Below are positions 6,492 to 63,174 of a stretch of DNA of 64,000 nt, piece by piece. Numbering within the stretch: the first letter of the stretch is position 1; every line of letters begins with the position of its first letter. The translations under genes and the position numbers were made by a program. The notes below the pieces were generated by a model, which saw nothing but the letters and a program-made list of their open reading frames with translations, ran no database searches and was not told where the DNA came from. Origin of the DNA: Escherichia phage a20; the sequence record OQ067374.1, one strand, 5' to 3'.

Positions 6492-6755
6492 TCATATCTC
6501 AACTTCCGCGAGTTCCATATATCCTTTGTTGATAACCTCTTTAAGGTCTTTAGAAAGAATAACACCAAAATGGTCGTTCATATGTCCGTTAACTAAACGA
6601 GTTATTTCGGCTTCAGATGACATATAAGGCACGTCCGAGTCCCAGTGAGATAGGCCTAAATGGGTATAAATCATCCCTTCGTCATCTGCAGTGTTGTACA
6701 TTGAAACAAATTCGCCTGTTACTTTATGTTTTGCGTAGAAAAATTTAAATTTCAT
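6492..6755 (-). CDS. hypothetical small protein
   Basis: ORF track, 87 aa; own promoter upstream. Confidence 0.5.
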   Translation of the reverse strand: MKFKFFYAKHKVTGEFVSMYNTADDEGMIYTHLGLSHWDSDVPYMSSEAEITRLVNGHMNDHFGVILSKDLKEVINKGYMELAEVEI

Positions 6756-6779
6756 GATGTTATCCTCTTTTAGATAGGA

Positions 6780-6812
6780 CTACTATATCATAGTCCTACT
6801 TAGTTGTAAACA
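6780..6812 (-). promoter_or_regulatory. early promoter (-35 GTTTAC, -10 TATAGT)
   Basis: Plus text tagataggactACTATAtcatagtcctacttagttGTAAAC. Confidence 0.55.
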
Positions 6813-6823
6813 CTTTTATGAAA

Positions 6824-7381
6824 TTAAAGATGAAGATACCACCCGTTGTAGTTGCTCTTGCGGACGATTTTCTTTAGGTCTTCATGGTCTCCCACGAACT
6901 TTATAGAATAAGAGAAGACGTCAGGTGAGGTTTCTTTGACATCTAATATAATAATGCAATCTGCGACTCGATGGTTCAAGAAGGGCCCTATATTGATTCC
7001 ATTACCACCCGGATAATCACCACTGTATCCTGTGGTAACCGAAATCCATTTCGAATCCATCTGATGGGTCTTTACTTCTACGCGTAGACCACAGTACTTA
7101 GGATGAGCTAAAACGTCCCATGCATACGTGTAAGGGTCTTCTACGTCTTCATTACCTTTATTAACATATCCGTCTAGCCAATTTGCTACTACATACTCTG
7201 CAAAGACTGCAACCTTACAACGTCGAACAACGTCTTCTTTTATTTGACCTGGATCTTGTTTCAACGAGTACCGAGCAGTATCAGCGATCTTAACCTTCAT
7301 TTCGCTAGTCAAAAACTCATTCGACAGGATAAATGTCGGAAGACTCTTCAGCCTCAACAGCCCCAAGTTCGTCTTTACCAT
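6824..7381 (-). CDS. candidate endonuclease IV (DenB) by position and size; start chosen at internal ATG with SD GAGG (185 aa), longest ORF would extend to 7444
   Basis: Between ndd and rIIB as in T4; 185 aa matches T4 DenB length; no catalytic motif verified. Confidence 0.4.
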   Translation of the reverse strand: MVKTNLGLLRLKSLPTFILSNEFLTSEMKVKIADTARYSLKQDPGQIKEDVVRRCKVAVFAEYVVANWLDGYVNKGNEDVEDPYTYAWDVLAHPKYCGLRVEVKTHQMDSKWISVTTGYSGDYPGGNGINIGPFLNHRVADCIIILDVKETSPDVFSYSIKFVGDHEDLKKIVRKSNYNGWYLHL

Positions 7382-7604
7382 AGATACCTCTGATGTGTAG
7401 TTCGCCAAAATAAATGCGGTCACCTTCTTCAAGATATTCTGCATCTACAGGCGGAATTTCAATAACAACTTCGTCGCATTCTAACCAGCCGTAGTGTGCA
7501 TCGCCAGGATGTTTTACCAATTTAGCGCAATACACTGATTTACATTTATGATGGCCACGAAGATTAGCGATTTTGGATTCTGATACGTCAAATGGATGAA
7601 TCAT
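7317..7604 (-). CDS. hypothetical acidic protein immediately downstream of rIIB terminator
   Basis: ORF track, 95 aa (...CDEVVIEIPPVDAEYLEEGDRIYFGELH...); overlaps the denB candidate start by about 65 nt. Confidence 0.45.
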   Translation of the reverse strand: MIHPFDVSESKIANLRGHHKCKSVYCAKLVKHPGDAHYGWLECDEVVIEIPPVDAEYLEEGDRIYFGELHIRGIYGKDELGAVEAEESSDIYPVE

Positions 7605-7611
7605 AATTACC

Positions 7612-7640
7612 CCTAAAGAAAAAAGGGGACCGAAGTCCCC
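7612..7640 (-). terminator. rho-independent terminator after rIIB (UUCG-loop hairpin)
   Basis: ggggac-cgaa-gtcccc flanked by A-run on plus strand. Confidence 0.7.
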
Positions 7641-7645
7641 AATTA

Positions 7646-8593
7646 TTATTCTGCAAATAATTCAGTAACGTCTGAAATTACTTCATAACGACATGTACGC
7701 ATCTTAGCATCACCATAGTCAACCGGGATGGATACAACATCACGTGGATGAACTTTAACTTTCACAACTTTATCTGAGCTTGAACCAAAGTGGCGAATAT
7801 AAGATTTAGCACAAACGTGGAGACCGCGAGAACAGGTTTGAGTATCATCGTCGTTAACTCGAGTACGAGGCATTGAAACAACTTTACCAGGCGAGTTATC
7901 AAATGTACCACTATAACAGTCTAAATAGTCCTTACGAACTACTTTCCATGCATAGAAATGTCCGTCTTCAGTGATTTCAATATCATTTGCAACCAAGAAG
8001 TCGAATAAACGTTGTACAGCTTTTTCGCTCGGGTTTTCTAACAGGTTTTCAAGGAACGGCAGATAGAATTTAAAGTCTTCACCTTTTTCCATTGAATCAA
8101 TAATACGGTTAACCAGCCCTGAACGAATCTCTATACCTTGATAAAATAAACTACCACCTTCAATAGTAACATTACCATCAACAAACTTAGTAATAGCTTT
8201 CTTGATGTTAATAAGTTCGACAGCTTTACTAAGGTTTCCTGCGACCAGATTAGCTTTAATTTCTTCAAAATTTGCATGACTTGATGGAGTCGCATTGTAT
8301 GCTACGCGTCCTTCAATAATTGAAATAAATTTAGATGACGCGTTCCATACGATTTCAGGACGATGTCCGCCGATAATAGGTTCATCATTTTCTGGAACTT
8401 CTTCGATTACATAAGAGGCATCGTTTGCTTCAGGGACAACGCCTTCCGCTTTAAAATTCTTAACAATCTTACGAAGAGTATCTGTTGAAATGTCGAAGTA
8501 ATCGGCAATTTCTTTACGGGTCCATTTGCCTGATTCAACCAGGCCGTAAGCTTCTAACTGTTCTTCTTGGGACAAGCATTTGATATTATACAT
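7646..8593 (-). CDS. rIIB: rIIB membrane-associated lysis-inhibition protein
   Basis: 315 aa; MYNIKCLSQEEQ...GSLFYQGIEIRSGLVNRIIDSMEKGEDFKFYLPFLENLLENPSEKAVQRLFDFLVANDIEITEDGHFYAWKVV...; recognised as T4 rIIB (312 aa). Confidence 0.9.
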   Translation of the reverse strand: MYNIKCLSQEEQLEAYGLVESGKWTRKEIADYFDISTDTLRKIVKNFKAEGVVPEANDASYVIEEVPENDEPIIGGHRPEIVWNASSKFISIIEGRVAYNATPSSHANFEEIKANLVAGNLSKAVELINIKKAITKFVDGNVTIEGGSLFYQGIEIRSGLVNRIIDSMEKGEDFKFYLPFLENLLENPSEKAVQRLFDFLVANDIEITEDGHFYAWKVVRKDYLDCYSGTFDNSPGKVVSMPRTRVNDDDTQTCSRGLHVCAKSYIRHFGSSSDKVVKVKVHPRDVVSIPVDYGDAKMRTCRYEVISDVTELFAE

Positions 8594-10828: not shown

Positions 10829-11029
10829 TCACAAGTTACGTTTAAAAATTTCTGCTACTTCAAGAAGTTCTTCTTTAGTAGCTGTATCGGTTTGTATTTT
10901 ATATCGAATTTCTTTAAAGCGTTCTTTAAAGGACTCTGCCGACTCGATATCAAAAAATCTTTGGATAAGCCGGAATTCCCGGAGCACTGCTTTATCAAAA
11001 AGTTCCAAGTCCACGTTATATGTTCTCAT
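10829..11029 (-). CDS. rIIA.1: small protein in rIIA.1 position
   Basis: ORF track, 66 aa; synteny only. Confidence 0.55.
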   Translation of the reverse strand: MRTYNVDLELFDKAVLREFRLIQRFFDIESAESFKERFKEIRYKIQTDTATKEELLEVAEIFKRNL

Positions 11030-11050: not shown

Positions 11051-11106
11051 CTAGGGCACTATTACTAAAGACCATATAATCTATCATCTTATGTGTAATA
11101 GTGCCT
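11051..11106. repeat. long imperfect inverted repeat (about 14-16 bp arms, ~29-nt AT-rich loop containing TATAAT) between glycosyltransferase gene and rIIA.1
   Basis: cctagggcactattac ... gtaatagtgcctcagg. Confidence 0.6.
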
Positions 11107-13062: not shown

Positions 13063-14882
13063 TATCCTAGCATCCAATCTTTACGGAGTTCAGGGTCGTT
13101 ACCCATGAGCATTTCAAATAGTTCTTTCCAATTTTCAGGAAGTTTAACTACGTCGTACACAGGGTTTTGAATCATTTCTTTATATTCATCTCGCTGAAGT
13201 GAGCCCAATCCCTTGATGTATCGAATACTATGCTTAGGCAGTGTATCTTTAGCTTCTTCATACTCAGCTACAGTATAAAACCATTTTTGAGTTTTGCCAA
13301 TTTGTGCAATAATTACAGGCGTTTTAACAAAGCGAATACGTCCTTGTTCAAACAATTCAGGCCAATTACTAAAGAAAGCAAGCAAAGCTGGATAGATACT
13401 TCCAAGACCGTCATGATCGGCATCGGTCATAATTGCAATATTACGATAGTTCGTATTCTCTGCCTTTTCACCAAGAATAAGACCTGTGATAGCACAGATA
13501 TCAAAGAGCTCTTTGTTCTTCATCATATCAGCATATGACATACCCCAGCTATTCATCACCTTACCACGTAATGGGAATCCGCCGTGTAGTTCACGGTCAC
13601 GAACATCAATGAGATAACCAATTGCCGAATCACCTTCTGTTAAAAACAATGTCGTATCTGCATCTTTACCACATTGGTTAGCTTTAATATGCTTATGAAC
13701 CTTAGCTTTAGTTGCCTTTTTAGCTGCTTTAGTTTCTGCAGCCTTTTCTGCCGCCAATTTACGAGCTAATGCTGCTTCAACAATAGGCATAATCAAGGCT
13801 TCGTTTTTAAGAAGTGCCTGAGCAATTTTCTTAGCATCTAATTGGATATGATTACGAATATCACCATACGTTGACGTTAAACGTTCTTTAGTCTGAGAAT
13901 CAAAACGCATGTTGCTCATGTCTCTAATAAACATCAACATTGTGAGACATTCTTTAACACGAGCTTTAGTGACTTCAATACCCTTATATTTCTTTTTAAT
14001 ACCCGGCAAAAGATGTTCACAGATATCATCCATTACACATTCAACATGATGACCACCGTTTTTAGTATGGATGTTATTCACATAAGTTAAATGACGGAAG
14101 CCATCTGGTGATGTTGTGAATGCTATAGAGACTTTATCATTTTCTTGAATGATGTTATCTTCACCAAATTGTTTAGCAAATCGTTTAAAATTACCATCAA
14201 CCTTTTTACCATTAAATGTGAACTTGATATCAGGATAAACGACTGCCAATGTTTGAAGTCGGTCTAAAGTAATATCTAAATAAATTTGAGATAAATTATG
14301 CTCTTCAAATGAAGAGAAATCAGGAGTGAAGATTACTTTAGTGCCTTTACCTTTAGATTTCTTAGAAGACCATGATTTGTTTTCCATTCCGTTTGAACAG
14401 TTAACAGTGATTTCATTTTCGCCATCTGACGTGATGCCTGTAAACAACGTAGAGAAGATATTAGTTAAACTACTCCCGACGCCGTTCATACCACCAGTCT
14501 TGCGTTCAGAGTCATCACCAAAGTTACCACCAGCCTTTGGAATAGTCCAGGCTGCTACAGGCCCAGGAATTTGTTCACCTGTTTGGTCGGTAACTAAACC
14601 TTGAGGAATACCACGTCCGTTATCTTCCACCGAAACTTGATTATTTTTAATTTGCACATCAATTTTATTTGCAAACTTAAATGATGTACGAATAGCTTCA
14701 TCAACCGAGTTGTCAATAATCTCATCGATTAATTTAACCAGACCAGGAACATATTCAACTTGTTGATATTTACCAAACAAAAAACGCTCGTGTGCTTCTT
14801 TAGCCGAAGAACCAATATACATACCACTACGTTTCTTAATATGTTCTACATCTGACAATACCTTAATTTCATTTTTAATCAT
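13062..14882 (-). CDS. 39: DNA topoisomerase II large subunit, unsplit (gp39 fused with gp60-equivalent C-terminus)
   Basis: 606 aa; GyrB-like ATPase motifs (EIIDNSVDEA, VEDNGRGIP, GGxxGxG region) then TOPRIM region LFLTEGDSA...MTDADHDGLGS; one continuous ORF, no gene 60 split. Confidence 0.92.
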   Translation of the reverse strand: MIKNEIKVLSDVEHIKKRSGMYIGSSAKEAHERFLFGKYQQVEYVPGLVKLIDEIIDNSVDEAIRTSFKFANKIDVQIKNNQVSVEDNGRGIPQGLVTDQTGEQIPGPVAAWTIPKAGGNFGDDSERKTGGMNGVGSSLTNIFSTLFTGITSDGENEITVNCSNGMENKSWSSKKSKGKGTKVIFTPDFSSFEEHNLSQIYLDITLDRLQTLAVVYPDIKFTFNGKKVDGNFKRFAKQFGEDNIIQENDKVSIAFTTSPDGFRHLTYVNNIHTKNGGHHVECVMDDICEHLLPGIKKKYKGIEVTKARVKECLTMLMFIRDMSNMRFDSQTKERLTSTYGDIRNHIQLDAKKIAQALLKNEALIMPIVEAALARKLAAEKAAETKAAKKATKAKVHKHIKANQCGKDADTTLFLTEGDSAIGYLIDVRDRELHGGFPLRGKVMNSWGMSYADMMKNKELFDICAITGLILGEKAENTNYRNIAIMTDADHDGLGSIYPALLAFFSNWPELFEQGRIRFVKTPVIIAQIGKTQKWFYTVAEYEEAKDTLPKHSIRYIKGLGSLQRDEYKEMIQNPVYDVVKLPENWKELFEMLMGNDPELRKDWMLG

Positions 14883-16216: not shown

Positions 16217-16249
16217 CTATAGTATCATAGACCATAGTTGTTGTACATC
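16217..16249 (-). promoter_or_regulatory. early promoter (-35 TGTACA, 17 nt, -10 TACTAT) with -10 embedded in inverted repeat ggtctat...atagacc
   Basis: Plus text gataggtctATAGTAtcatagaccatagttgtTGTACA. Confidence 0.55.
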
Positions 16250-16772
16250 ATTTTAGCAAAATAAAATCAACTTGTTCTGCCAATGAACGTCTAAACATTA
16301 ATTGACAACTTCCGAGGATGAAATCAGGTGCTTCATAGACCGCGATGTAGTATCCTTTAGCTTTCAAGAGTTCAACATCCACCTGGTCATCAAACCATGC
16401 ATAAACCGCGTCAACACTTTCAAATCCAAAATAGAACCCTTGAGCCCAATCTTCACTCAATTCAAATGTGTGCTCAATTCTATAGTATCTTAAGATATTT
16501 TGTTCAAGGAGTTTGTCTTCATTTACTGTAGGACGATTAGGGACATTATAGTTGTCGCCGTGATGGTAGAAGTTACCTGAGAGTATTCCATGCTTATCAA
16601 GGAACTCCCATGTTTCTTCAGAGTTGTCGGTGCCCGACCAACCGTATGGCGAACGAGGTTCTTTATTCCAAGAGGTTTCCCAAATTCTGACGGCTTTACC
16701 GTCTTCGATAGCAATTCCCGGTAATGATTCACGTTGAGTACAAAAACTACGTTCTACGCGGTAAACTAACAT
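16248..16772 (-). CDS. hypothetical protein
   Basis: ORF track, 174 aa; strong SD GAGGAG. Confidence 0.55.
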   Translation of the reverse strand: MLVYRVERSFCTQRESLPGIAIEDGKAVRIWETSWNKEPRSPYGWSGTDNSEETWEFLDKHGILSGNFYHHGDNYNVPNRPTVNEDKLLEQNILRYYRIEHTFELSEDWAQGFYFGFESVDAVYAWFDDQVDVELLKAKGYYIAVYEAPDFILGSCQLMFRRSLAEQVDFILLK

Positions 16773-16796
16773 ATTATTCTCCTCTGGTTGATATGG

Positions 16797-16829
16797 TTAT
16801 AATACCAAAACCAGAGGAGAAGTAAACAA
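16797..16829 (-). promoter_or_regulatory. early promoter (-35 GTTTAC, 17 nt, -10 TATTAT) lying in the loop of an 11-bp perfect inverted repeat that includes the SD of the downstream gene
   Basis: ctcctctggtt gatatggttATAATAcca aaccagaggag aaGTAAAC. Confidence 0.55.
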
Positions 16830-16831
16830 CT

Positions 16832-17251
16832 TTATGCGAAAGCAGCTGGGCTATATTTTTTAATTTGGAATTCAGGAACTACCATGAACTGTCCAGCGAA
16901 AACGATGTTATAAAGCTTAACACCATCTTCTACCCAACGGTCGCTAATAAATCCGGCGATTTGCTTAGTTTTCCACGGTGTTCCATCAGTTGCCGCAGCA
17001 ATAGTGAATTCATGGTCTTTTTCAACAGAAACTGATCTGCATAGTCCCCATTTGAACGCTTTTTCTTCTGGTTCAATGAATTGGCTTTTAACGTAACCAA
17101 TGTTACCATCAGCGTCACGAACTTTAACTTCATTACGTCCAAAAACCGGATCGCTCACAGAAAGAACTTCAACCAACTTCCCGGCAACTTTAGAGCGAGA
17201 AGCAACAGATACATATACGTAATCACCTGTAGAGAGATTTACAATATTCAT
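16832..17251 (-). CDS. paralog A of a three-member tandem family (MotB-position)
   Basis: 139 aa; shares VSVASRSKVAGKLVEV, KAFKWGLC and GFISDRWVEDGVKLYNIVFAGQF with next gene. Confidence 0.6.
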   Translation of the reverse strand: MNIVNLSTGDYVYVSVASRSKVAGKLVEVLSVSDPVFGRNEVKVRDADGNIGYVKSQFIEPEEKAFKWGLCRSVSVEKDHEFTIAAATDGTPWKTKQIAGFISDRWVEDGVKLYNIVFAGQFMVVPEFQIKKYSPAAFA

Positions 17252-17761: not shown

Positions 17762-17792
17762 CACTATACTCCATCCATCCTTGGATGTACAA
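17762..17792 (-). promoter_or_regulatory. early promoter (-35 TGTACA, 17 nt, -10 TATAGT)
   Basis: Plus text tcACTATActccatccatccttggaTGTACAac. Confidence 0.6.
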
Positions 17793-22233: not shown

Positions 22234-22814
22234 TAAAAATTCAACATTTTCAAATGAATGATTTTGTATAATCGAGATAAAGGGTCATATTCTAAGTCTT
22301 CAATTTCCACAATCTCAAATCTAGAGATACCTGAGACCATGTACTCTCGTTCAGATTCAATCATATCTAGGACGTCAACACGCTTTTCTTCCATAACATG
22401 CTTAGGGTTCTTTCCGGCGAGTACAATGTTAATCATGTTTTGGTAGTAATCAAAAATGAATGGAGCATTCCTGAGACTAAGAATAGTGTACGTCTGATAT
22501 TCCCATCTCCCGGAGAATTGACGAGCTGTACTGAAATCAGTTGTGAATGATGTTACTCGTCCAGGAGACCAATGGCATCCAACAGAAAGAAGGGAAAGAC
22601 GTTCTACTTCTTCTGGAGTTACACCACGGTAGAGTTCTACTGGTACTGTAGAAGTCATATGCTTACGAACAAGATGGTCTAATTCATAGTGGAAATCCGG
22701 GTCTTCCTTAGAATCAGTGCAAGCCCAGAGAATGTTTTGTTCTTGGCGGGTGAATTTGCTATCAATCAGATTTGTTAGGTATTCACGTTCTTGAAGTTCA
22801 GATTGACATGTCAT
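22233..22814 (-). CDS. modB: ADP-ribosyltransferase ModB-like (paralog of modA)
   Basis: 193 aa; ...YRGVTPEEVERL...HWSPGRVTSFTTDFSTARQF...ESEREYMVS. Confidence 0.7.
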   Translation of the reverse strand: MTCQSELQEREYLTNLIDSKFTRQEQNILWACTDSKEDPDFHYELDHLVRKHMTSTVPVELYRGVTPEEVERLSLLSVGCHWSPGRVTSFTTDFSTARQFSGRWEYQTYTILSLRNAPFIFDYYQNMINIVLAGKNPKHVMEEKRVDVLDMIESEREYMVSGISRFEIVEIEDLEYDPLSRLYKIIHLKMLNF

Positions 22815-22869
22815 GATAGACCTCCATTTAAAGATAAGCCTATCATAACACGAGAGGAGGGAATGTAAA

Positions 22870-23037
22870 CTACTTTTTAAGCTTTCCTACTAAAGGTCCA
22901 TCAGGACCAGGTTGTTCTAACATGAATAAGGACGCTTTAAAAAGCAATGTCAACCCTTTCACCATTCGATACCATGTCTCGAAGTCTTTTTCCTTGATTT
23001 CTAGTAAGAATTTCTCTTTCATTTCCAAGGACTCCAT
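22870..23037 (-). CDS. possible small ORF (55 aa)
   Basis: Hand-translated MESLEMKEKFLLEIKEKDFETWYRMVKGLTLLFKASLFMLEQPGPDGPLVGKLKK; approx coordinates. Confidence 0.3.
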   Translation of the reverse strand: MESLEMKEKFLLEIKEKDFETWYRMVKGLTLLFKASLFMLEQPGPDGPLVGKLKK

Positions 23038-28967: not shown

Positions 28968-29156
28968 TTATCGAAAATCTGCTTCGAAAACTTTCTCGTC
29001 ATTAACAAATGCTTTAACTAATGCTTTGTTCACTTCAGCAAGTTGTACCGTAACCCACTCGATTTCTTCGCGATCACCTGATAACATCATATCTTTAGTG
29101 AACATCTCACCGCTTTTAAACCAACCGATAAAAGTAACTTTAGTTAATTTGCTCAT
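28968..29156 (-). CDS. dmd: Dmd-like antitoxin (discriminator of mRNA degradation; inhibits host RnlA/LsoA-type toxins)
   Basis: 62 aa from MSKLTKVTFIGWFKSGEMFTKDMM...AEVNKALVKAFVNDEKVFEADFR; recognised from T4 Dmd (60 aa); ATGA overlap with upstream gene. Confidence 0.65.
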   Translation of the reverse strand: MSKLTKVTFIGWFKSGEMFTKDMMLSGDREEIEWVTVQLAEVNKALVKAFVNDEKVFEADFR

Positions 29157-29470
29157 ATTTCCTCGCAAAATGCCCATTCAGCGTGATAAACTGTAGCGCC
29201 TTTAGTATCATTCATTTGAACTACATCTACCGGAGAAATTACTCGGTAGAGACGTGGTTCACCTCCATAAGAGCGTGCTGCTCGTCCTGCATAAATCTTT
29301 GCTAAACCGATATCTTCAGTAAAGAATACACGATCCAAGTTTTTCTTACGTCCAGTTTCAGACAGAACTCCTGTTTCTTCAGGAGGACAAAGCATGTTTT
29401 CGATGTTAGCTGAACTACTTGAACCGTGATAAAAAATCTTAAATTCTGCTTTACAATCGATGGTTTTCAT
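29153..29470 (-). CDS. hypothetical protein
   Basis: ORF track, 105 aa. Confidence 0.5.
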   Translation of the reverse strand: MKTIDCKAEFKIFYHGSSSSANIENMLCPPEETGVLSETGRKKNLDRVFFTEDIGLAKIYAGRAARSYGGEPRLYRVISPVDVVQMNDTKGATVYHAEWAFCEEI

Positions 29471-29494
29471 TTTGTTCTCCAGTAGTTGATAGGT

Positions 29495-29526
29495 CTATAA
29501 TAACACAACTACTGGAGAAGTAAACT
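29495..29526 (-). promoter_or_regulatory. early promoter (-35 GTTTAC, 17 nt, -10 TATTAT) within the loop of a 12-bp perfect inverted repeat that contains the downstream SD
   Basis: ctccagtagttg ataggtctATAATAaca caactactggag aaGTAAAC. Confidence 0.6.
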
Positions 29527-29900
29527 TAAAAACGTAATTTAGATATATCTGCGTTGATTTCGTTTTGGTTTGCGTCGTATGCAATTAAACGAACCGCTTT
29601 AGATGGGTCATTCAATGCATAGAAATGATGGAACATTGCTCGAACGATATCACCATTTACGAGTTCTACCTGGATAGGAGAACCTTTTTCGAGTTGGAAA
29701 TGTTCATAAGCTTTGATGGTTCGTAGATAATCAAGTTTTTGATTTCCGGCTCCAACTATTTGTACGATACGTTTGCCCATATTTTCCATACGAGATACAA
29801 TAGTTTTAGGAGCAAGAATAACGTAGGTTGCCAGTGGAGAAACTACTTCAACAGTTGTGTTTTCGGTGATTGCAGTAAAAATTGCTTGAGACATATTCAT
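29526..29900 (-). CDS. hypothetical protein
   Basis: ORF track, 124 aa. Confidence 0.5.
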   Translation of the reverse strand: MNMSQAIFTAITENTTVEVVSPLATYVILAPKTIVSRMENMGKRIVQIVGAGNQKLDYLRTIKAYEHFQLEKGSPIQVELVNGDIVRAMFHHFYALNDPSKAVRLIAYDANQNEINADISKLRF

Positions 29901-29959
29901 AATGTTTTCCTCTTGGTTGGTGTAAGTACATCATATCATGCCTAGAGGAAGATGTAAAC

Positions 29960-51510: not shown

Positions 51511-51973
51511 AATGCGTCATTTTATCGTAGATGTCTTGAATAAACGTTTCATCTACCAACGCTACCATATCATCGTCATGACTGTCGTAGACATTATGAA
51601 CGAAGTAACTATATTTCTTTGCAACTTCCTTACGTTCTTTTTTGATACGTTGGACAAAAGCATTAAAACAAGCTCGAGTTATGTATGCATGTGGGTTATT
51701 GTACTTAGTTTCGTCGAAATTATGAAGTCCCTTAATAGAGGCTTCAATCCCATCTGCAATCATCTCCTGCTTCCAAGACTGGGTATATCCTGAAAAGTTG
51801 AAACGTTTGGACAGGCCTTCGGCGATAAGCATAATTGCTAAACCGATGGTATCATTCTGACGAATAATTTTGTTTGGGTCTTTATTATTTAAGAGCTCCT
51901 TTTTCCACTCGATTATAGCGGCGAGAAGCTCTTTATTATTCACATAGTTATTTTTAGGTTTTTGTTCAGTCAT
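51416..51973 (-). CDS. 55: late-transcription sigma factor gp55
   Basis: 185 aa; [26 protein letters not shown]...; same length as T4 gp55; strong SD. Confidence 0.9.
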
Positions 51974-52045
51974 AAGTACCTCTTAGCTCAATTCATAGGT
52001 CTATTATATCATAATATTTAGAGACCTATCTTAAAGCACGAGATA

Positions 52046-53174: not shown

Positions 53175-53203
53175 GATATTTTCCTCATTTTAAGACGATA
53201 GGA

Positions 53204-53236
53204 AGATAATAACATGACTTCCTATCGTTGTACATT
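53204..53236 (-). promoter_or_regulatory. early promoter (-35 TGTACA, 17 nt, -10 TATTAT) inside inverted repeat gataggaag...cttcctatc
   Basis: Plus text gataggaagATAATAacatgacttcctatcgtTGTACA. Confidence 0.55.
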
Positions 53237-54126: not shown

Positions 54127-54305
54127 GGCTTAATTTCCTTCGCAATTGAACAGAAGATACCACGGTCACAAAGCATTTCGCCAATTTCTGGATATTTGAT
54201 TGAACGGTACCAAACATCCAGGCTTGAAACTCTGGTTATCTGTACTGCATTACCGTTGACGGAATAGTACTGGTCAACCTTAATTTCTTTATCTTCAATT
54301 GTCAT
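54123..54305 (-). CDS. hypothetical small protein; start moved to internal ATG with strong SD AGAGGAAA
   Basis: ORF track 54123..54425 trimmed to MTIEDKEIKVDQYYSVNGNAVQ... (60 aa). Confidence 0.4.
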   Translation of the reverse strand: MTIEDKEIKVDQYYSVNGNAVQITRVSSLDVWYRSIKYPEIGEMLCDRGIFCSIAKEIKP

Positions 54306-54470
54306 TTTATTTTCCTCTATAGTAGATGGTTTAATCTTAACACGTCTATTGAGGATGTAAACTGTTTTATGAAAATATTTTCGATTTGAGAGGGGCACAA
54401 GGAGATAGTGAAGTGAAGATTCCAATGGATTATATTAGAAATGAGATAAAGAAGACCAGGCGGCACCTGG

Positions 54471-55575: not shown

Positions 55576-57389
55576 TGGTGTTTAACCCTATGCATGATTT
55601 CTTTATTTTTGCCTAGATTAAATCCGCGTTCGTTCGGATTTCCAAGATAACCGCATGTTCTTCTTATGGTGTTCATCTTTTTAGGATCAGTTTCTCCACA
55701 AACTGAACAAACAAATCCGTTTTCAGTAGGAGTCATTTCATGGGTACTTCCGCATGTAAAACATTTATCTACTGGCATATTAACACCAAAATAATCTAAA
55801 TGTTGTGCAGCATAATCCCATACAGCCTCAAGTCCTTTTAAGTTATTTTTCATATCAGGAAGTTCAACATAAGAAATATGACCGCCGGTCGCTATGAAAT
55901 GATATGGCGCTTCACGAGAAATCTTTTCAAACGGAGTAATATTTTCTTCTACTGAAACATGGAAACTATTAGTGTACCAGCCTTTATCAGTGACATCCTT
56001 TACACTTCCATATTTTTCTGTGTCGAGTTTACAGAAACGATAACACAAGTTTTCGGCAGGAGTAGAATATAAACTAAAAGCAAAACCGGTTCTTTCGGTC
56101 CACTGCTTAAGACGAGCATTCATTTTAGTTAAAATTTCCTGTCCAATATCACGACCGACAAGAATATTCAATTCGTGAATACCAATGTATCCTAGGGACA
56201 CTGAACTTCTACCGTTTTTAAATAACTCAATTATATCGTCATCAGGTTTAAGACGAACCCCGAATGCACCTTCTTGGTAAAGAATAGGAGCAACAGTCGC
56301 TTTAACTCCTTTTAAGGAACTAATTCTACACATCAAGGCTTCAAAACACAGGTCCATTCGTTCGTTAAATAGCTCAACAAATTTCTGTTCATTGAACTGT
56401 GTTCCAATATAAGAATCTAATGCTATACGAGGAAGATTCAGTGTTACAACGCCAAGATTATTACGACCGTCAAGAATTTCATTTCCAGTTGAATCTTTCC
56501 ATACACTCAAGAAACTACGGCAGCCCATTGGAGAAACAGGAACAGATGAACCGGTAATAGCTTTATTATTCTTAACCGAAATAACGTCAGGATACATTCT
56601 TTTGCTTGCACATTCTAACGCAAGTTGTTTAATATCATAGTTTGGATCGTCTTTATAAAGATTAACACCTTCTTCAATGAACATAACAAGCTTAGGGAAA
56701 ATAGGAGTTATCCCATCACGACCAAGACCTTTAATACGATTTTTCAGAATTGCTTTCTGAATCATTCGTTCAGTCCAGTCAGTTCCCGTACCAAATGTAA
56801 TTGTTACAAAAGGCGTTTGTCCGTTTGAACTAAAGAGAGTGTTTACTTCATATTCATAAGCTTGGAATGCGTCATAGACATCTTTTTCTGTTTTGGATTG
56901 AGCATAATTCAACGCATCAGCGATTTGCCATTTTTCTGCATCTTCAATATGTTTTGCATAGGTGCGTTTAACATAAGGAGAAAGTACTTTATCTACATTA
57001 GCAAAAGTCGTTCCGCCGTATTGGTGAGAAGCAACCTGTGCAGTAATTTGTGCCATAATTGCAGTAGCAACGCCAATTGATTTAGGAGTTTCAATCTGCG
57101 CATTACCTAGCTTAAATCCGTTTTCAAGCATTCCTTTTAAATCTACTAAACAACAATTAGTAAATGGAAGAGCAGGGGAATAATCAATATCATGGAAATG
57201 GATAATTCCGCTTTCATGTGCTTTCATAATAAAAGACGGGACCATATTTTTGGCAATGTGTTTAGACACAATACCAGCCATAAGGTCCCGTTGAGTTGGA
57301 AAAACACGAGAATCTTTATTAGCATTCTCGTTTAAAAGGTCTTTATTAGTTTTATGAATCAATCCTTCAATTTCTTTTTCAATTGTCAT
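55572..57389 (-). CDS. nrdD: anaerobic ribonucleoside-triphosphate reductase (glycyl radical enzyme), uninterrupted
   Basis: 605 aa; C-terminal Zn site CxxC...CxxC and glycyl-radical motif RTCGYLG; no intron. Confidence 0.95.
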   Translation of the reverse strand: MTIEKEIEGLIHKTNKDLLNENANKDSRVFPTQRDLMAGIVSKHIAKNMVPSFIMKAHESGIIHFHDIDYSPALPFTNCCLVDLKGMLENGFKLGNAQIETPKSIGVATAIMAQITAQVASHQYGGTTFANVDKVLSPYVKRTYAKHIEDAEKWQIADALNYAQSKTEKDVYDAFQAYEYEVNTLFSSNGQTPFVTITFGTGTDWTERMIQKAILKNRIKGLGRDGITPIFPKLVMFIEEGVNLYKDDPNYDIKQLALECASKRMYPDVISVKNNKAITGSSVPVSPMGCRSFLSVWKDSTGNEILDGRNNLGVVTLNLPRIALDSYIGTQFNEQKFVELFNERMDLCFEALMCRISSLKGVKATVAPILYQEGAFGVRLKPDDDIIELFKNGRSSVSLGYIGIHELNILVGRDIGQEILTKMNARLKQWTERTGFAFSLYSTPAENLCYRFCKLDTEKYGSVKDVTDKGWYTNSFHVSVEENITPFEKISREAPYHFIATGGHISYVELPDMKNNLKGLEAVWDYAAQHLDYFGVNMPVDKCFTCGSTHEMTPTENGFVCSVCGETDPKKMNTIRRTCGYLGNPNERGFNLGKNKEIMHRVKHQ

Positions 57390-57859
57390 TTTAAACTCTT
57401 TCTAAGTTGCTTCTTAAATGAAGCTATTAACTGTGTTTTGGTGTCAGATTCATTATATTCAAATCCTCTTTGAAGCATCTCAGCCATCATTTCCTCTTTA
57501 CCTAGTCTTGAGAACTCTTTAGTTTTGTCTGGAACAAAATTAGGATGGATATTATTATAAGAATAATCTTGTTTCAAATAAGCAAGAAGAGCTTCAAGCC
57601 ATTCGAGGTAGTCAACATCACGTCCTTTAAGACCGGAACGGTTGAACTTATGCTTCATTTGACCTTCTGCTGCGTTGCACAGATTACAGAGTAATCCACG
57701 AACTCTACCGGCTTTTGGCCCGTTTAATTCGTGGTCGTGGTCAAGATGGTTACCTTGAACATCAGGGTCTAATTCACGGTGGCAAATAGGACACTTACCA
57801 TTCTGTGCATCATAAAATTTTTGTTTTTCTTCTTTATATTTTGCGCCTGATAATAACAT
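57386..57859 (-). CDS. 49: endonuclease VII (Holliday junction resolvase, gp49)
   Basis: 157 aa; ...KFYDAQNGKCPICHRELDPDVQGNHLDHDHELNGPKAGRVRGLLCNLCNAAEGQ...; recognised as T4 EndoVII. Confidence 0.92.
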   Translation of the reverse strand: MLLSGAKYKEEKQKFYDAQNGKCPICHRELDPDVQGNHLDHDHELNGPKAGRVRGLLCNLCNAAEGQMKHKFNRSGLKGRDVDYLEWLEALLAYLKQDYSYNNIHPNFVPDKTKEFSRLGKEEMMAEMLQRGFEYNESDTKTQLIASFKKQLRKSLK

Positions 57860-57888
57860 GATAAACCCTTACCTTAAATAGATAAGGG

Positions 57889-57896
57889 TATTTATA
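57889..57896 (-). promoter_or_regulatory. late promoter box TATAAATA upstream of gene 49, positioned at the 5' arm of a hairpin that contains the gene 49 SD
   Basis: Plus-strand tatttata; hairpin accctta-(11 nt)-taagggt between box and ATG. Confidence 0.55.
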
Positions 57897-63142: not shown

Positions 63143-63174
63143 CTATAATAACATAACCATAGACCTTGTAAACA
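63143..63174 (-). promoter_or_regulatory. early promoter (-35 GTTTAC, 17 nt, -10 TATTAT); 5' leader shares ~27 nt with the 29495 promoter region
   Basis: Plus text ctccagtagttgataggtctATAATAacataaccatagaccttGTAAAC. Confidence 0.6.

Follow-up and report, generated by a model that had tools for sequence, protein, structure and literature searches.

Early promoters of a T4-like phage embedded in hairpins that may mask the Shine-Dalgarno sequence of read-through transcripts

The stretch of DNA analyzed here, 64,000 nucleotides (nt) of Escherichia phage a20 (sequence record OQ067374.1; hereafter the window), is from a T4-like phage of the RB69 group (Mosigvirus). Nearly all genes of the window are on the minus strand, and all promoter and hairpin elements described below are read on that strand. 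Our subjects are two early promoters, referred to as sites 1 and 2, that are embedded in inverted repeats containing the Shine-Dalgarno (SD) sequence of the next gene, together with the late-promoter hairpin of gene 49. An original prediction, made by a model from the letters of the window, had placed such elements at these three sites, and all three were indeed found there on the minus (coding) strand. The site-1 region is 96–97% identical to phages BEU50 and mobillu, while the site-2 region shares up to 99.7% identity with Mosigvirus records. No family was returned by an Rfam search of the window.

Site 1 precedes a homologue of T4 motB.2. From 16827 to 16770 it reads GTTTAC-TTCTCCTCTGGTT-TTGG-TATTAT-AACCATATC-AACCAGAGGAGAA-TAAT-ATG and consists of the following features (aa, amino acids; bp, base pairs).

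16822–16827, minus strand: -35 hexamer GTTTAC of a T4-type early promoter, 17 nt from TATTAT; TG precedes the -10
16809–16821, minus strand: 5' arm TTCTCCTCTGGTT (anti-SD), the first 13 nt of the 17-nt -35/-10 spacer
16799–16804, minus strand: TATTAT, the -10 hexamer, within the loop; start of transcription predicted near 16792, given the usual 7-nt spacing
16777–16789, minus strand: 3' arm AACCAGAGGAGAA, including the SD GGAG (16782–16779); perfect 13-nt inverted repeat
16248–16772, minus strand: motB.2 homologue of 174 aa, downstream of site 1; 40% identity to T4 motB.2

The 13-bp perfect repeat leaves a 19-nt loop that encloses the TG-extended -10, and its 3' arm carries AGGAG 7 nt 5' of the ATG (16772). 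The intergenic space is 59 nt long, the upstream stop codon lies 4 nt 5' of the -35, and no terminator-like site is found between the hairpin and the upstream promoters at 17791 and 18350. In a Pfam search the gene upstream of site 1 matched the MotB family, the sole match among the genes searched; the motB.2 homologue (open reading frame ORF174) and the ORF105 and ORF124 described below gave no match. This MotB-family gene (16832–17251) precedes motB.2 in the window (16248–17251), and the gene order in T4 (6653–8161 of its locus) is motB.2, motB.1, motB; in both, the promoter and hairpin accompany motB.2. A promoter at the TATAAT of the plus strand was also considered and was rejected, as no -35 occurs at the proper spacing.

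Site 2 follows the plan of site 1 with other stem letters and reads, from 29525 to 29468, GTTTAC-TTCTCCAGTAGTTG-TGT-TATTAT-AGACCTAT-CAACTACTGGAGAA-CAAA-ATG, with the ATG at 29470.

29520–29525, minus strand: -35 hexamer GTTTAC, abutting the TAA stop of ORF124 (0 nt between)
29506–29519, minus strand: 5' arm TTCTCCAGTAGTTG (anti-SD), in the spacer; perfect 14-nt inverted repeat
29497–29502, minus strand: TATTAT, the -10 hexamer, within the loop; start of transcription predicted near 29490
29475–29488, minus strand: 3' arm CAACTACTGGAGAA, including the SD GGAG (29480–29477); perfect 14-bp repeat
29153–29470, minus strand: ORF105, downstream of site 2, behind its promoter and hairpin

Here the loop is 17 nt long and the -10 is again TG-extended. 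The original prediction that at both sites the loop holds the -10 and the promoter-distal arm holds the next gene's GGAG can be read directly from the sequence; the inverted repeats are also perfect, as had been stated, but their lengths are 13 and 14 bp instead of 11–12 bp. The intergenic space of site 2 is 55 nt, and no terminator-like site lies between the hairpin and the upstream promoter at 29959. A homologue of dmd (antitoxin, discriminator of mRNA degradation; 28968–29156, minus strand) overlaps the end of ORF105 and so belongs to the unit behind the site-2 hairpin. Given the stop codons 4 or 0 nt from the -35, the upstream promoters and the lack of a terminator in between, read-through is expected at both early sites.

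The third element precedes gene 49.

57889–57896, minus strand: late-promoter box TATAAATA, overlapping the 5' arm by its last base
57865–57889, minus strand: hairpin of 10 bp, with 5' arm ACCCTTATCT (57889–57880), loop ATTTA and 3' arm AGGTAAGGGT (57874–57865), the latter including the SD AAGGG
57386–57859, minus strand: gene 49, endonuclease VII, 157 aa; in the T4 annotation gene 49 is beside nrdD

The gene 49 SD lies 6 nt before the ATG (57859). Unlike at sites 1 and 2, the promoter box is 5' of the hairpin and not in its loop. Thus, of the earlier claim that the same logic applies to gene 49, the alternation between a locked and an open SD is borne out by the predicted folds described next, while the placement of the promoter differs.

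The window contains four perfect inverted repeats with arms of 11 nt or more and loops of 3–30 nt, compared to a mean of 0.87 in 30 dinucleotide shuffles; in three of them an early-type promoter has its -10 between the arms. The read-through RNAs of site 1, site 2 and gene 49 have predicted folding energies of -24, -21.7 and -12.9 kcal/mol, with z-scores of -6.14, -5.48 and -4.10, respectively; none of 200 shuffles folded as well. When the 106 gene starts of the window were ranked by the probability that the SD pairs upstream, these three came first to third. In read-through contexts of 119–130 nt the helix is predicted to be kept and the SD to be buried, with a probability of upstream pairing of about 1.0. 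RNAs that begin 6–10 nt past the -10 lack the 5' arm and are predicted to have an open SD and a minimum free energy of -4 kcal/mol or weaker. Likewise, gene 49 RNAs that begin 5–9 nt past TATAAATA have lost the 5' arm, and their SD is predicted to be open. Comparison of read-through and promoter-proximal 5' ends by RNA structure prediction, which had been suggested as a check, therefore gave a locked SD in the former and an open SD in the latter at all three sites. The transcript starts at sites 1 and 2 were placed by consensus spacing, about 7 nt past the -10.

The leaders of motB.2 orthologues fall into four groups with four different SD-masking hairpins, T4 included. Because the SD register differs between lineages and no common structure can be imposed, the leaders are described group by group; the distant orthologues were reached with two-sequence alignment, while a protein-seeded search gave only near-identical relatives. 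In the window the helix is TTCTCCTCTGGTT/AACCAGAGGAGAA (13 bp, -24 kcal/mol). T4 and its close relatives have GTTTAC-T-TCCTCGGT.AGTTGTGGT...ACACCATAGCTACTGAGGA, which forms 17 bp including three G-U pairs (-23.7 kcal/mol), and another group (L183) has TTCTCCTCATG/CATGAGGAGAA (-19.4 kcal/mol). In the fourth group (L181, L182 and L193) the 5' arm consists of the -10 hexamer, whole or in its 3' part, and the following bases, and pairs with the SD plus either the start codon or the bases immediately 5' of it (about -18 kcal/mol). A second masking geometry, in which the -10 and the next 5–8 nt pair with the SD and AUG, is found in the T4 modB leader (ATG at 13130 of the T4 locus L177), whose orthologues were also examined. 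All four motB.2 groups have the 5' partner on the upstream side of the point where transcription is predicted to begin. That four different stems lead to one outcome is hard to explain other than by selection for SD masking in long transcripts.

For gene 49, a (T/A)ATAAATA-like box is followed immediately by a hairpin in all 39 distinct orthologous leaders; the stems are of several unrelated sequences. RNAalifold on a MAFFT alignment of these leaders gave no consensus structure, owing to register shifts, and an explicit structure with pair counting was used instead. In an alignment of 23 sequences, 86% of the helix positions are paired and compensatory changes are seen at six of the 10 pairs. 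Covariation scores 0.48 in this alignment; shuffled controls score 0.17 and slid controls no more than 0.20. The G-U pairs show a bias toward the sense strand (31 vs. 10). The helix in the window, ACCCTTATCT/AGGTAAGGGT, is identical to that of T4, and the site is the orthologue of the T4 case; the gene 49 hairpin is thus the known T4 gene 49 device (PMC3014915). Together, this covariation and the motB.2 stems support, at the level of sequence comparison, the view that SD masking is under selection.

Promoter-early stem-loop (PeSL) cassettes have been described for RB49/phi1, PST/T4 and nt-1/KVP40 (Arbiol et al., 2010, PMC2839356; Comeau et al., 2014, PMC4122927). In these, the stem-loop occupies one of five published positions, i.e., upstream of the -35, over the -35, between the boxes, over the -10 or just before the start site (PMC2839356), and its published function is that of a terminator/attenuator and recombination site (PMC2839356, PMC4122927). 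In the window, ORF124 (29526–29900; locus L242) lies between the promoters at 29959 and 29525; NHEP36, CEV1 and the LF82-series phages lack it. The NHEP36 junction is a chimera of both promoter modules: the terminator, -35, spacer and -10 come from the module at 29959, and the changeover to the ORF105 leader falls within the SD (AAGAGGA|GAACAAAATG). The ORF124 polymorphism is a PeSL-type cassette gain or loss. The pairing over the SD of ORF105 varies with this context. In the window and in two related loci (L006 and L007), where ORF105 follows the unterminated ORF124, a 14-bp helix closes over the SD (hereafter a clamp). In many phages with a GC hairpin and T run 5' of the promoter, only a 5–6-bp TCTCC/GGAGA pairing is present, and in NHEP36, where ORF105 is behind the gene 41 terminator with the chimeric promoter module, the pairing is only 7 bp.

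Viral contigs were then scanned with the pattern GTTTACWTCTCC-N24-42-GGAGA, which yielded at least 109 distinct sequences; among the matches listed, 54 combined a properly spaced -10 with a start codon 3' of GGAGA. At least 18 elements, i.e., 18 of the 41 non-redundant promoter/start hits listed, extend TCTCC/GGAGA inward by 4–10 Watson-Crick pairs, compared to a mean of 1.4 and a maximum of 8 when the partners were permuted. None of the 53 listed pattern matches that lack promoter/start features shows such an extension. The family extends over many T4-like phages, and its stems are varied and include CATTAG/CTAATG, TGTAG/CTACA, TCATG/CATGA, TCTAGTTG/CAACTAGA and GGTTTGACAT/ATGTCAAACC. In the window itself, a spacer pentamer complementary to the SD of the gene's own leader is found in five of 16 early promoters, while 0.6 are expected from shuffled spacers; the pairings are TCTCC with GGAGA, CCTCC with GGAGG and TCCTC with GAGGA. 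Partner-specific matching of spacer motif and SD is weakly significant (p = 0.03 for non-seeded cases and p = 0.085 for the window only).

Strong and weak clamps also differ in what precedes them. A canonical terminator before the promoter was found for none of 19 strong clamps and for eight of 23 weak or absent ones (Fisher p = 0.005). The long hairpin is thus found where read-through is guaranteed, which fits an insulator against upstream transcripts. On balance, we consider it probable that the hairpins of sites 1 and 2 act as terminator-free insulators that restrict translation of each gene to RNA from its own early promoter. The mechanism of the original prediction, built-in discrimination between read-through and locally initiated transcripts, is partly supported and is the best-supported reading; we lean toward it, with transcript starts and effects on translation that we infer.

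The original reading of PeSL stem-loops suggests a different role, that of a transcription attenuator or terminator: the stem-loop would stop or pause polymerases from upstream, the downstream gene would be transcribed mostly from its own promoter and the overlap with the SD would be incidental. The stem-loops of RB49/phi1 PeSL cassettes lie between the -35 and -10 or over the -10, and one of them cut expression of a downstream lacZ as strongly as rrnB T1 (PMC2839356). In phage SA79RD the orthologue of site 1 (1773–1817 of locus L002) is labelled a rho-independent terminator by TransTermHP/WebGeSTer, though no T run follows it 3'; such promoter hairpins may be mislabelled by automated annotation, of which the proposed mechanism, if true, would warn. 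In the window, the promoter scan recovered both early promoters, while the terminator scan called neither hairpin. The sequences after the hairpins, AAUAAUAUG at site 1 and ACAAAAUG at site 2, contain no T/U run, and with these tails and loops of 17–19 nt neither hairpin has the makings of an intrinsic terminator. Attenuation also leaves unexplained why the SD is kept in the helix of motB.2 and modB orthologues while its 5' partner changes, why the AUG is also within the helix in most cases of the other geometry, and why the spacer motif matches the SD type of its own gene (TCTCC/GGAGA, CCTCC/GGAGG and TCCTC/GAGGA). We therefore regard attenuation as unlikely, although it is still a serious alternative.

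Several observations weigh against SD masking as the purpose of these hairpins. The anticorrelation with terminators fits an attenuator equally well, since strong clamps are found only where no canonical terminator precedes the promoter. The promoters at 63173, 6811, 6299 and 53234 have equally good hairpins that straddle the -10 and lack the SD, which also favors the attenuator, and some other selective pressure for early-promoter hairpins must therefore exist. The family and terminator-link counts are drawn from related phages and are phylogenetically non-independent. Stem pairing in the TCTCC/GGAGA family is almost wholly Watson-Crick, with no G-U strand bias (29 vs. 29), and so the G-U criterion cannot separate an RNA-level from a DNA-level role in this family. 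By a loose criterion, clamps were found in 14 of 99 promoters outside the search pattern, compared to 11.2 expected, and motB.2 and modB are the only convincing cases in the first 50 kb of T4. The clamp is thus a minority design and no general property of early promoters.

Repeats that straddle the -10 occur in the window at promoters with the -35 at 63173, 6811, 6299, 53234 (a perfect 11-nt repeat at 53195–53228), 6037 and 52935. In these six the 3' arm directly follows the -10 and ends 8–20 nt before the SD, so that masking of the SD is impossible. The motif AGnCCTATCAA is found directly 3' of the -10, around the predicted start, in many early promoters (e.g., 29496–29486, 63144–63134 and 3700–3690) and often forms the 3' arm of hairpins that do not reach the SD.

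The Watson-Crick perfection of the stems and the absence of G-U strand bias would also be expected of a DNA-level feature or by-product, in which the repeats arose by template switching, or serve as recombination or cruciform sites of mobile PeSL cassettes, without a role in RNA. That the cassettes recombine is evident from NHEP36, which lacks ORF124 and has its chimeric promoter module joined inside the SD, and motB.2 occupies a different place in the gene order than in T4. We consider this explanation improbable: the repeats persist with compensating differences across lineages and paralogues, they are confined to the context of a promoter and start codon (0 of 53 controls, among the matches listed), and the T4 motB.2 and gene 49 helices contain sense-strand G-U pairs that are A-C mismatches on the other strand. 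The arm sequences also differ between sites, which makes a common protein operator unlikely; a protein operator was rejected as such, given that the arms vary by site and lineage while their complementarity is kept.

Also relevant is the position of the clamps relative to the upstream gene, whose stop codon lies just 9–22 nt before the anti-SD arm of strong clamps (median 13; all but one within 17). A ribosome ending the upstream gene might thus melt the base of the stem, the first part that it would meet and the part that contains the SD pairs, and open the SD in read-through RNA by translational coupling. Judging from the dimensions of the ribosome footprint, however, a ribosome terminating at the median distance of 13 nt would reach little or no stem. 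The distance from stop to arm is 14 nt at site 1 and 10 nt at site 2, which would expose about 3 of 14 bp, and a gene with a strong promoter of its own has little need of coupling. Translational coupling is accordingly judged very improbable.

The SDs enclosed by the hairpins resemble targets of the RegB/S1 nuclease. Compared with the consensus of strong sites, GGAGRAYARAA (PMC3014915), GGAGAATAATA of site 1 matches 10 of 11 positions and GGAGAACAAAA of site 2 matches 11 of 11. For T4 motB.2, an efficient in vivo RegB cut was mapped in the GGAU SD (Durand et al., 2006, PMC1702504). Some motB.2 RNA must then have an open SD, as expected of promoter-proximal transcripts. The T4 modB RNA apparently folds and resists RegB in vitro, although it is cleaved in vivo (PMC1702504), a puzzle that the second geometry, with the -10 paired to the SD and AUG, may in our view explain. 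Short in vivo transcripts whose SD is open would fit both observations. Since structured RNA is shielded from RegB, the read-through and promoter-proximal RNAs should differ not only in translation but also in their sensitivity to the nuclease.

These matches could also mean that the helix is primarily an mRNA-stability element, which would hide the RegB/S1 site in polycistronic RNA and provide the upstream cistron with a protective 3' structure, the effect on translation being secondary. RNA structure is known to guard against RegB (PMC3014915, PMC1702504), and the regB gene is present in RB69. Gene 49 and several members of the family share the design despite SDs other than GGAG, however, and site 2 has a C at position 7, which is absent from natural T4 sites (PMC1702504). 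Masking of the SD necessarily blocks initiation too, so the two effects are inseparable by sequence. Of the explanations weighed here, a role primarily in mRNA stability appears the least probable. The duplexes are only 13–14 bp long, and an RNase III site is unlikely.

Returning to the insulator that we favor, we propose that sites 1 and 2 are composite PeSL-type early-promoter cassettes, in which an anti-SD arm has been placed in the 17-nt spacer and the downstream SD serves as the other arm. A polymerase that started upstream would copy both arms, with no terminator in between and the upstream stop abutting the -35, and the nascent read-through RNA would close a 13–14-bp helix of about -20 kcal/mol over the SD. 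The closed helix would make the site unusable for 30S subunits and probably also for the RegB/S1 nuclease. A polymerase starting from the embedded promoter would begin in the loop, about 7 nt past the -10, and its RNA would lack the 5' arm. Such RNA would have a leader of ~22 nt and a free SD matching the RegB consensus, allowing immediate translation and later inactivation. Gene dose would then not be additive along units with tandem promoters, and synthesis would end when early promoters are shut off despite middle-mode read-through. At gene 49 the same device would work with a late promoter and opposite timing, keeping the gene silent early and allowing its translation late.

More tentatively, the anti-SD-in-spacer clamp might be a general terminator-free insulator in the dense early gene clusters of T4-like phages, by which translation and RegB exposure would be set by the gene's own promoter. 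It would be rebuilt by compensatory change when a cassette lands behind an unterminated gene and would be spread by PeSL shuffling. This broader proposal is possible, and we hold it with less confidence than the insulator role of sites 1 and 2.

A precedent in T4 had been noted in the original prediction and is documented: the e, soc, 49 and I-TevI genes have hairpins that sequester the ribosome-binding site and contain an internal late promoter (Uzan and Miller, 2010, PMC3014915). All of these promoters are late, however, so that the timing at the early sites is inverted, on which the prediction did not remark. The similarities are threefold. The SD or AUG is in a helix of long transcripts, as predicted here at all three sites. 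The promoter is placed so that the local RNA would lose the 5' strand, an arrangement evident in the layout, given the starts expected from spacing. The helix is kept by compensatory change, as seen in gene 49, in the four motB.2 stems and in the family (18 of 41 vs. 0 of 53, among the matches listed). In contrast to the T4 cases, sites 1 and 2 use a sigma-70-type early promoter, GTTTAC-N17-TATTAT, in place of TATAAATA (gp55), which gene 49 does have; their -10 is in the loop and their 5' arm in the spacer; and the expected outcome is early-only or promoter-autonomous expression and not an early-off/late-on switch. We found no description of an early-promoter version with the anti-SD arm in the spacer in the searchable literature, a scope outside which older subscription papers fall. 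The RB69 genome paper predicted 57 early promoters and did not mention hairpins.

PeSL cassettes also share features with the early sites. At sites 1 and 2 a strong early promoter, stem-loop, SD and ATG are combined in a short intergenic cassette, and such cassettes are repeated in the genome and tied to the gain or loss of small ORFs (ORF124 and the chimeric junction). The stem-loop described here differs in that it encloses the -10 and that its 3' arm is the SD, an arrangement outside the five listed positions, where the SD is drawn as a separate 3' module. The published role is also not translational masking, and the present hairpins have neither the polyG/polyC stems of RB49 nor a T run. 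Sites 1 and 2 are thus of the PeSL type in their promoter layout and indel association, and add a geometry with a distinct predicted consequence. As in the RegB/S1 sites of T4 early mRNAs, GGAG and an A-rich 7-mer are found in the initiation region of an early gene, and the T4 orthologue of the site-1 gene, motB.2, has been mapped as an in vivo target; there, in contrast, structure is only a cause of resistance and is not linked to alternative 5' ends from an embedded promoter (PMC1702504). Sites 1 and 2 are best described as an early-promoter variant of the known T4 device on PeSL-type cassettes.

If the proposed mechanism is true, tandem unterminated early genes would be kept from over-expression or too-late expression by an RNA switch within the promoter, without spending space on a terminator. 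Early genes would then be under a kind of control that has not been described before and that parallels the classic late-gene cases; some of the PeSL stem-loops would have to be reread as translational rather than transcriptional insulators, and RNAs that are RegB-resistant in vitro yet cleaved in vivo would find a simple explanation. The design is compact (about 55 nt) and portable and could serve synthetic operons.

The repeated use of the device, as originally proposed, amounts to the two strong early cases and gene 49; the rest of the window contributes one moderate case (promoter at 22870) and two weak ones (54362 and 29959).

22812–22870, minus strand: moderate case at a modB-like gene; -10 TATGAT and the next 5 nt (22847–22837) pair with 22822–22812; -13.1 kcal/mol, z -2.4
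54303–54362, minus strand: weak case at the 55.6 homologue; spacer TCCTC.ATAG pairs with CTAT.GAGGA (SD); -8.3 kcal/mol, z about -1.3
29898–29959, minus strand: weak case at ORF124; spacer TTCCTCT pairs with AGAGGAA (SD); -10 kcal/mol, z about -1.3; canonical terminator 5' of the promoter

In the modB-like gene (22814), the paired 22822–22812 segment runs from the 3' half of the SD through the spacer to the AUG, and the promoter spacer also carries CCTCC.

Three other structures of the window may be mentioned. A near-identical promoter module, AACCAAGGATGGTTGGAGTATAAT, occurs four times (60512, 18350, 61531 and 17791) and contains a small hairpin, AACCA-agga-TGGTT, wholly within the spacer. 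A perfect 11-nt repeat, GGCACTATTAC/GTAATAGTGCC, is located at 11055–11105 with a 29-nt loop, 26 nt upstream of an ORF starting at 11029; no clear early promoter was found at this repeat. In the leader of the gene at 51973 (about 51975–52045), a hairpin ATAGGTCT...AGACCTAT encloses ATTATGATATAAT, and an outer pairing of GUAUCUC with GAGGUAC in the SD region is predicted; judged by this predicted fold, the leader may be a middle-promoter version of SD masking.

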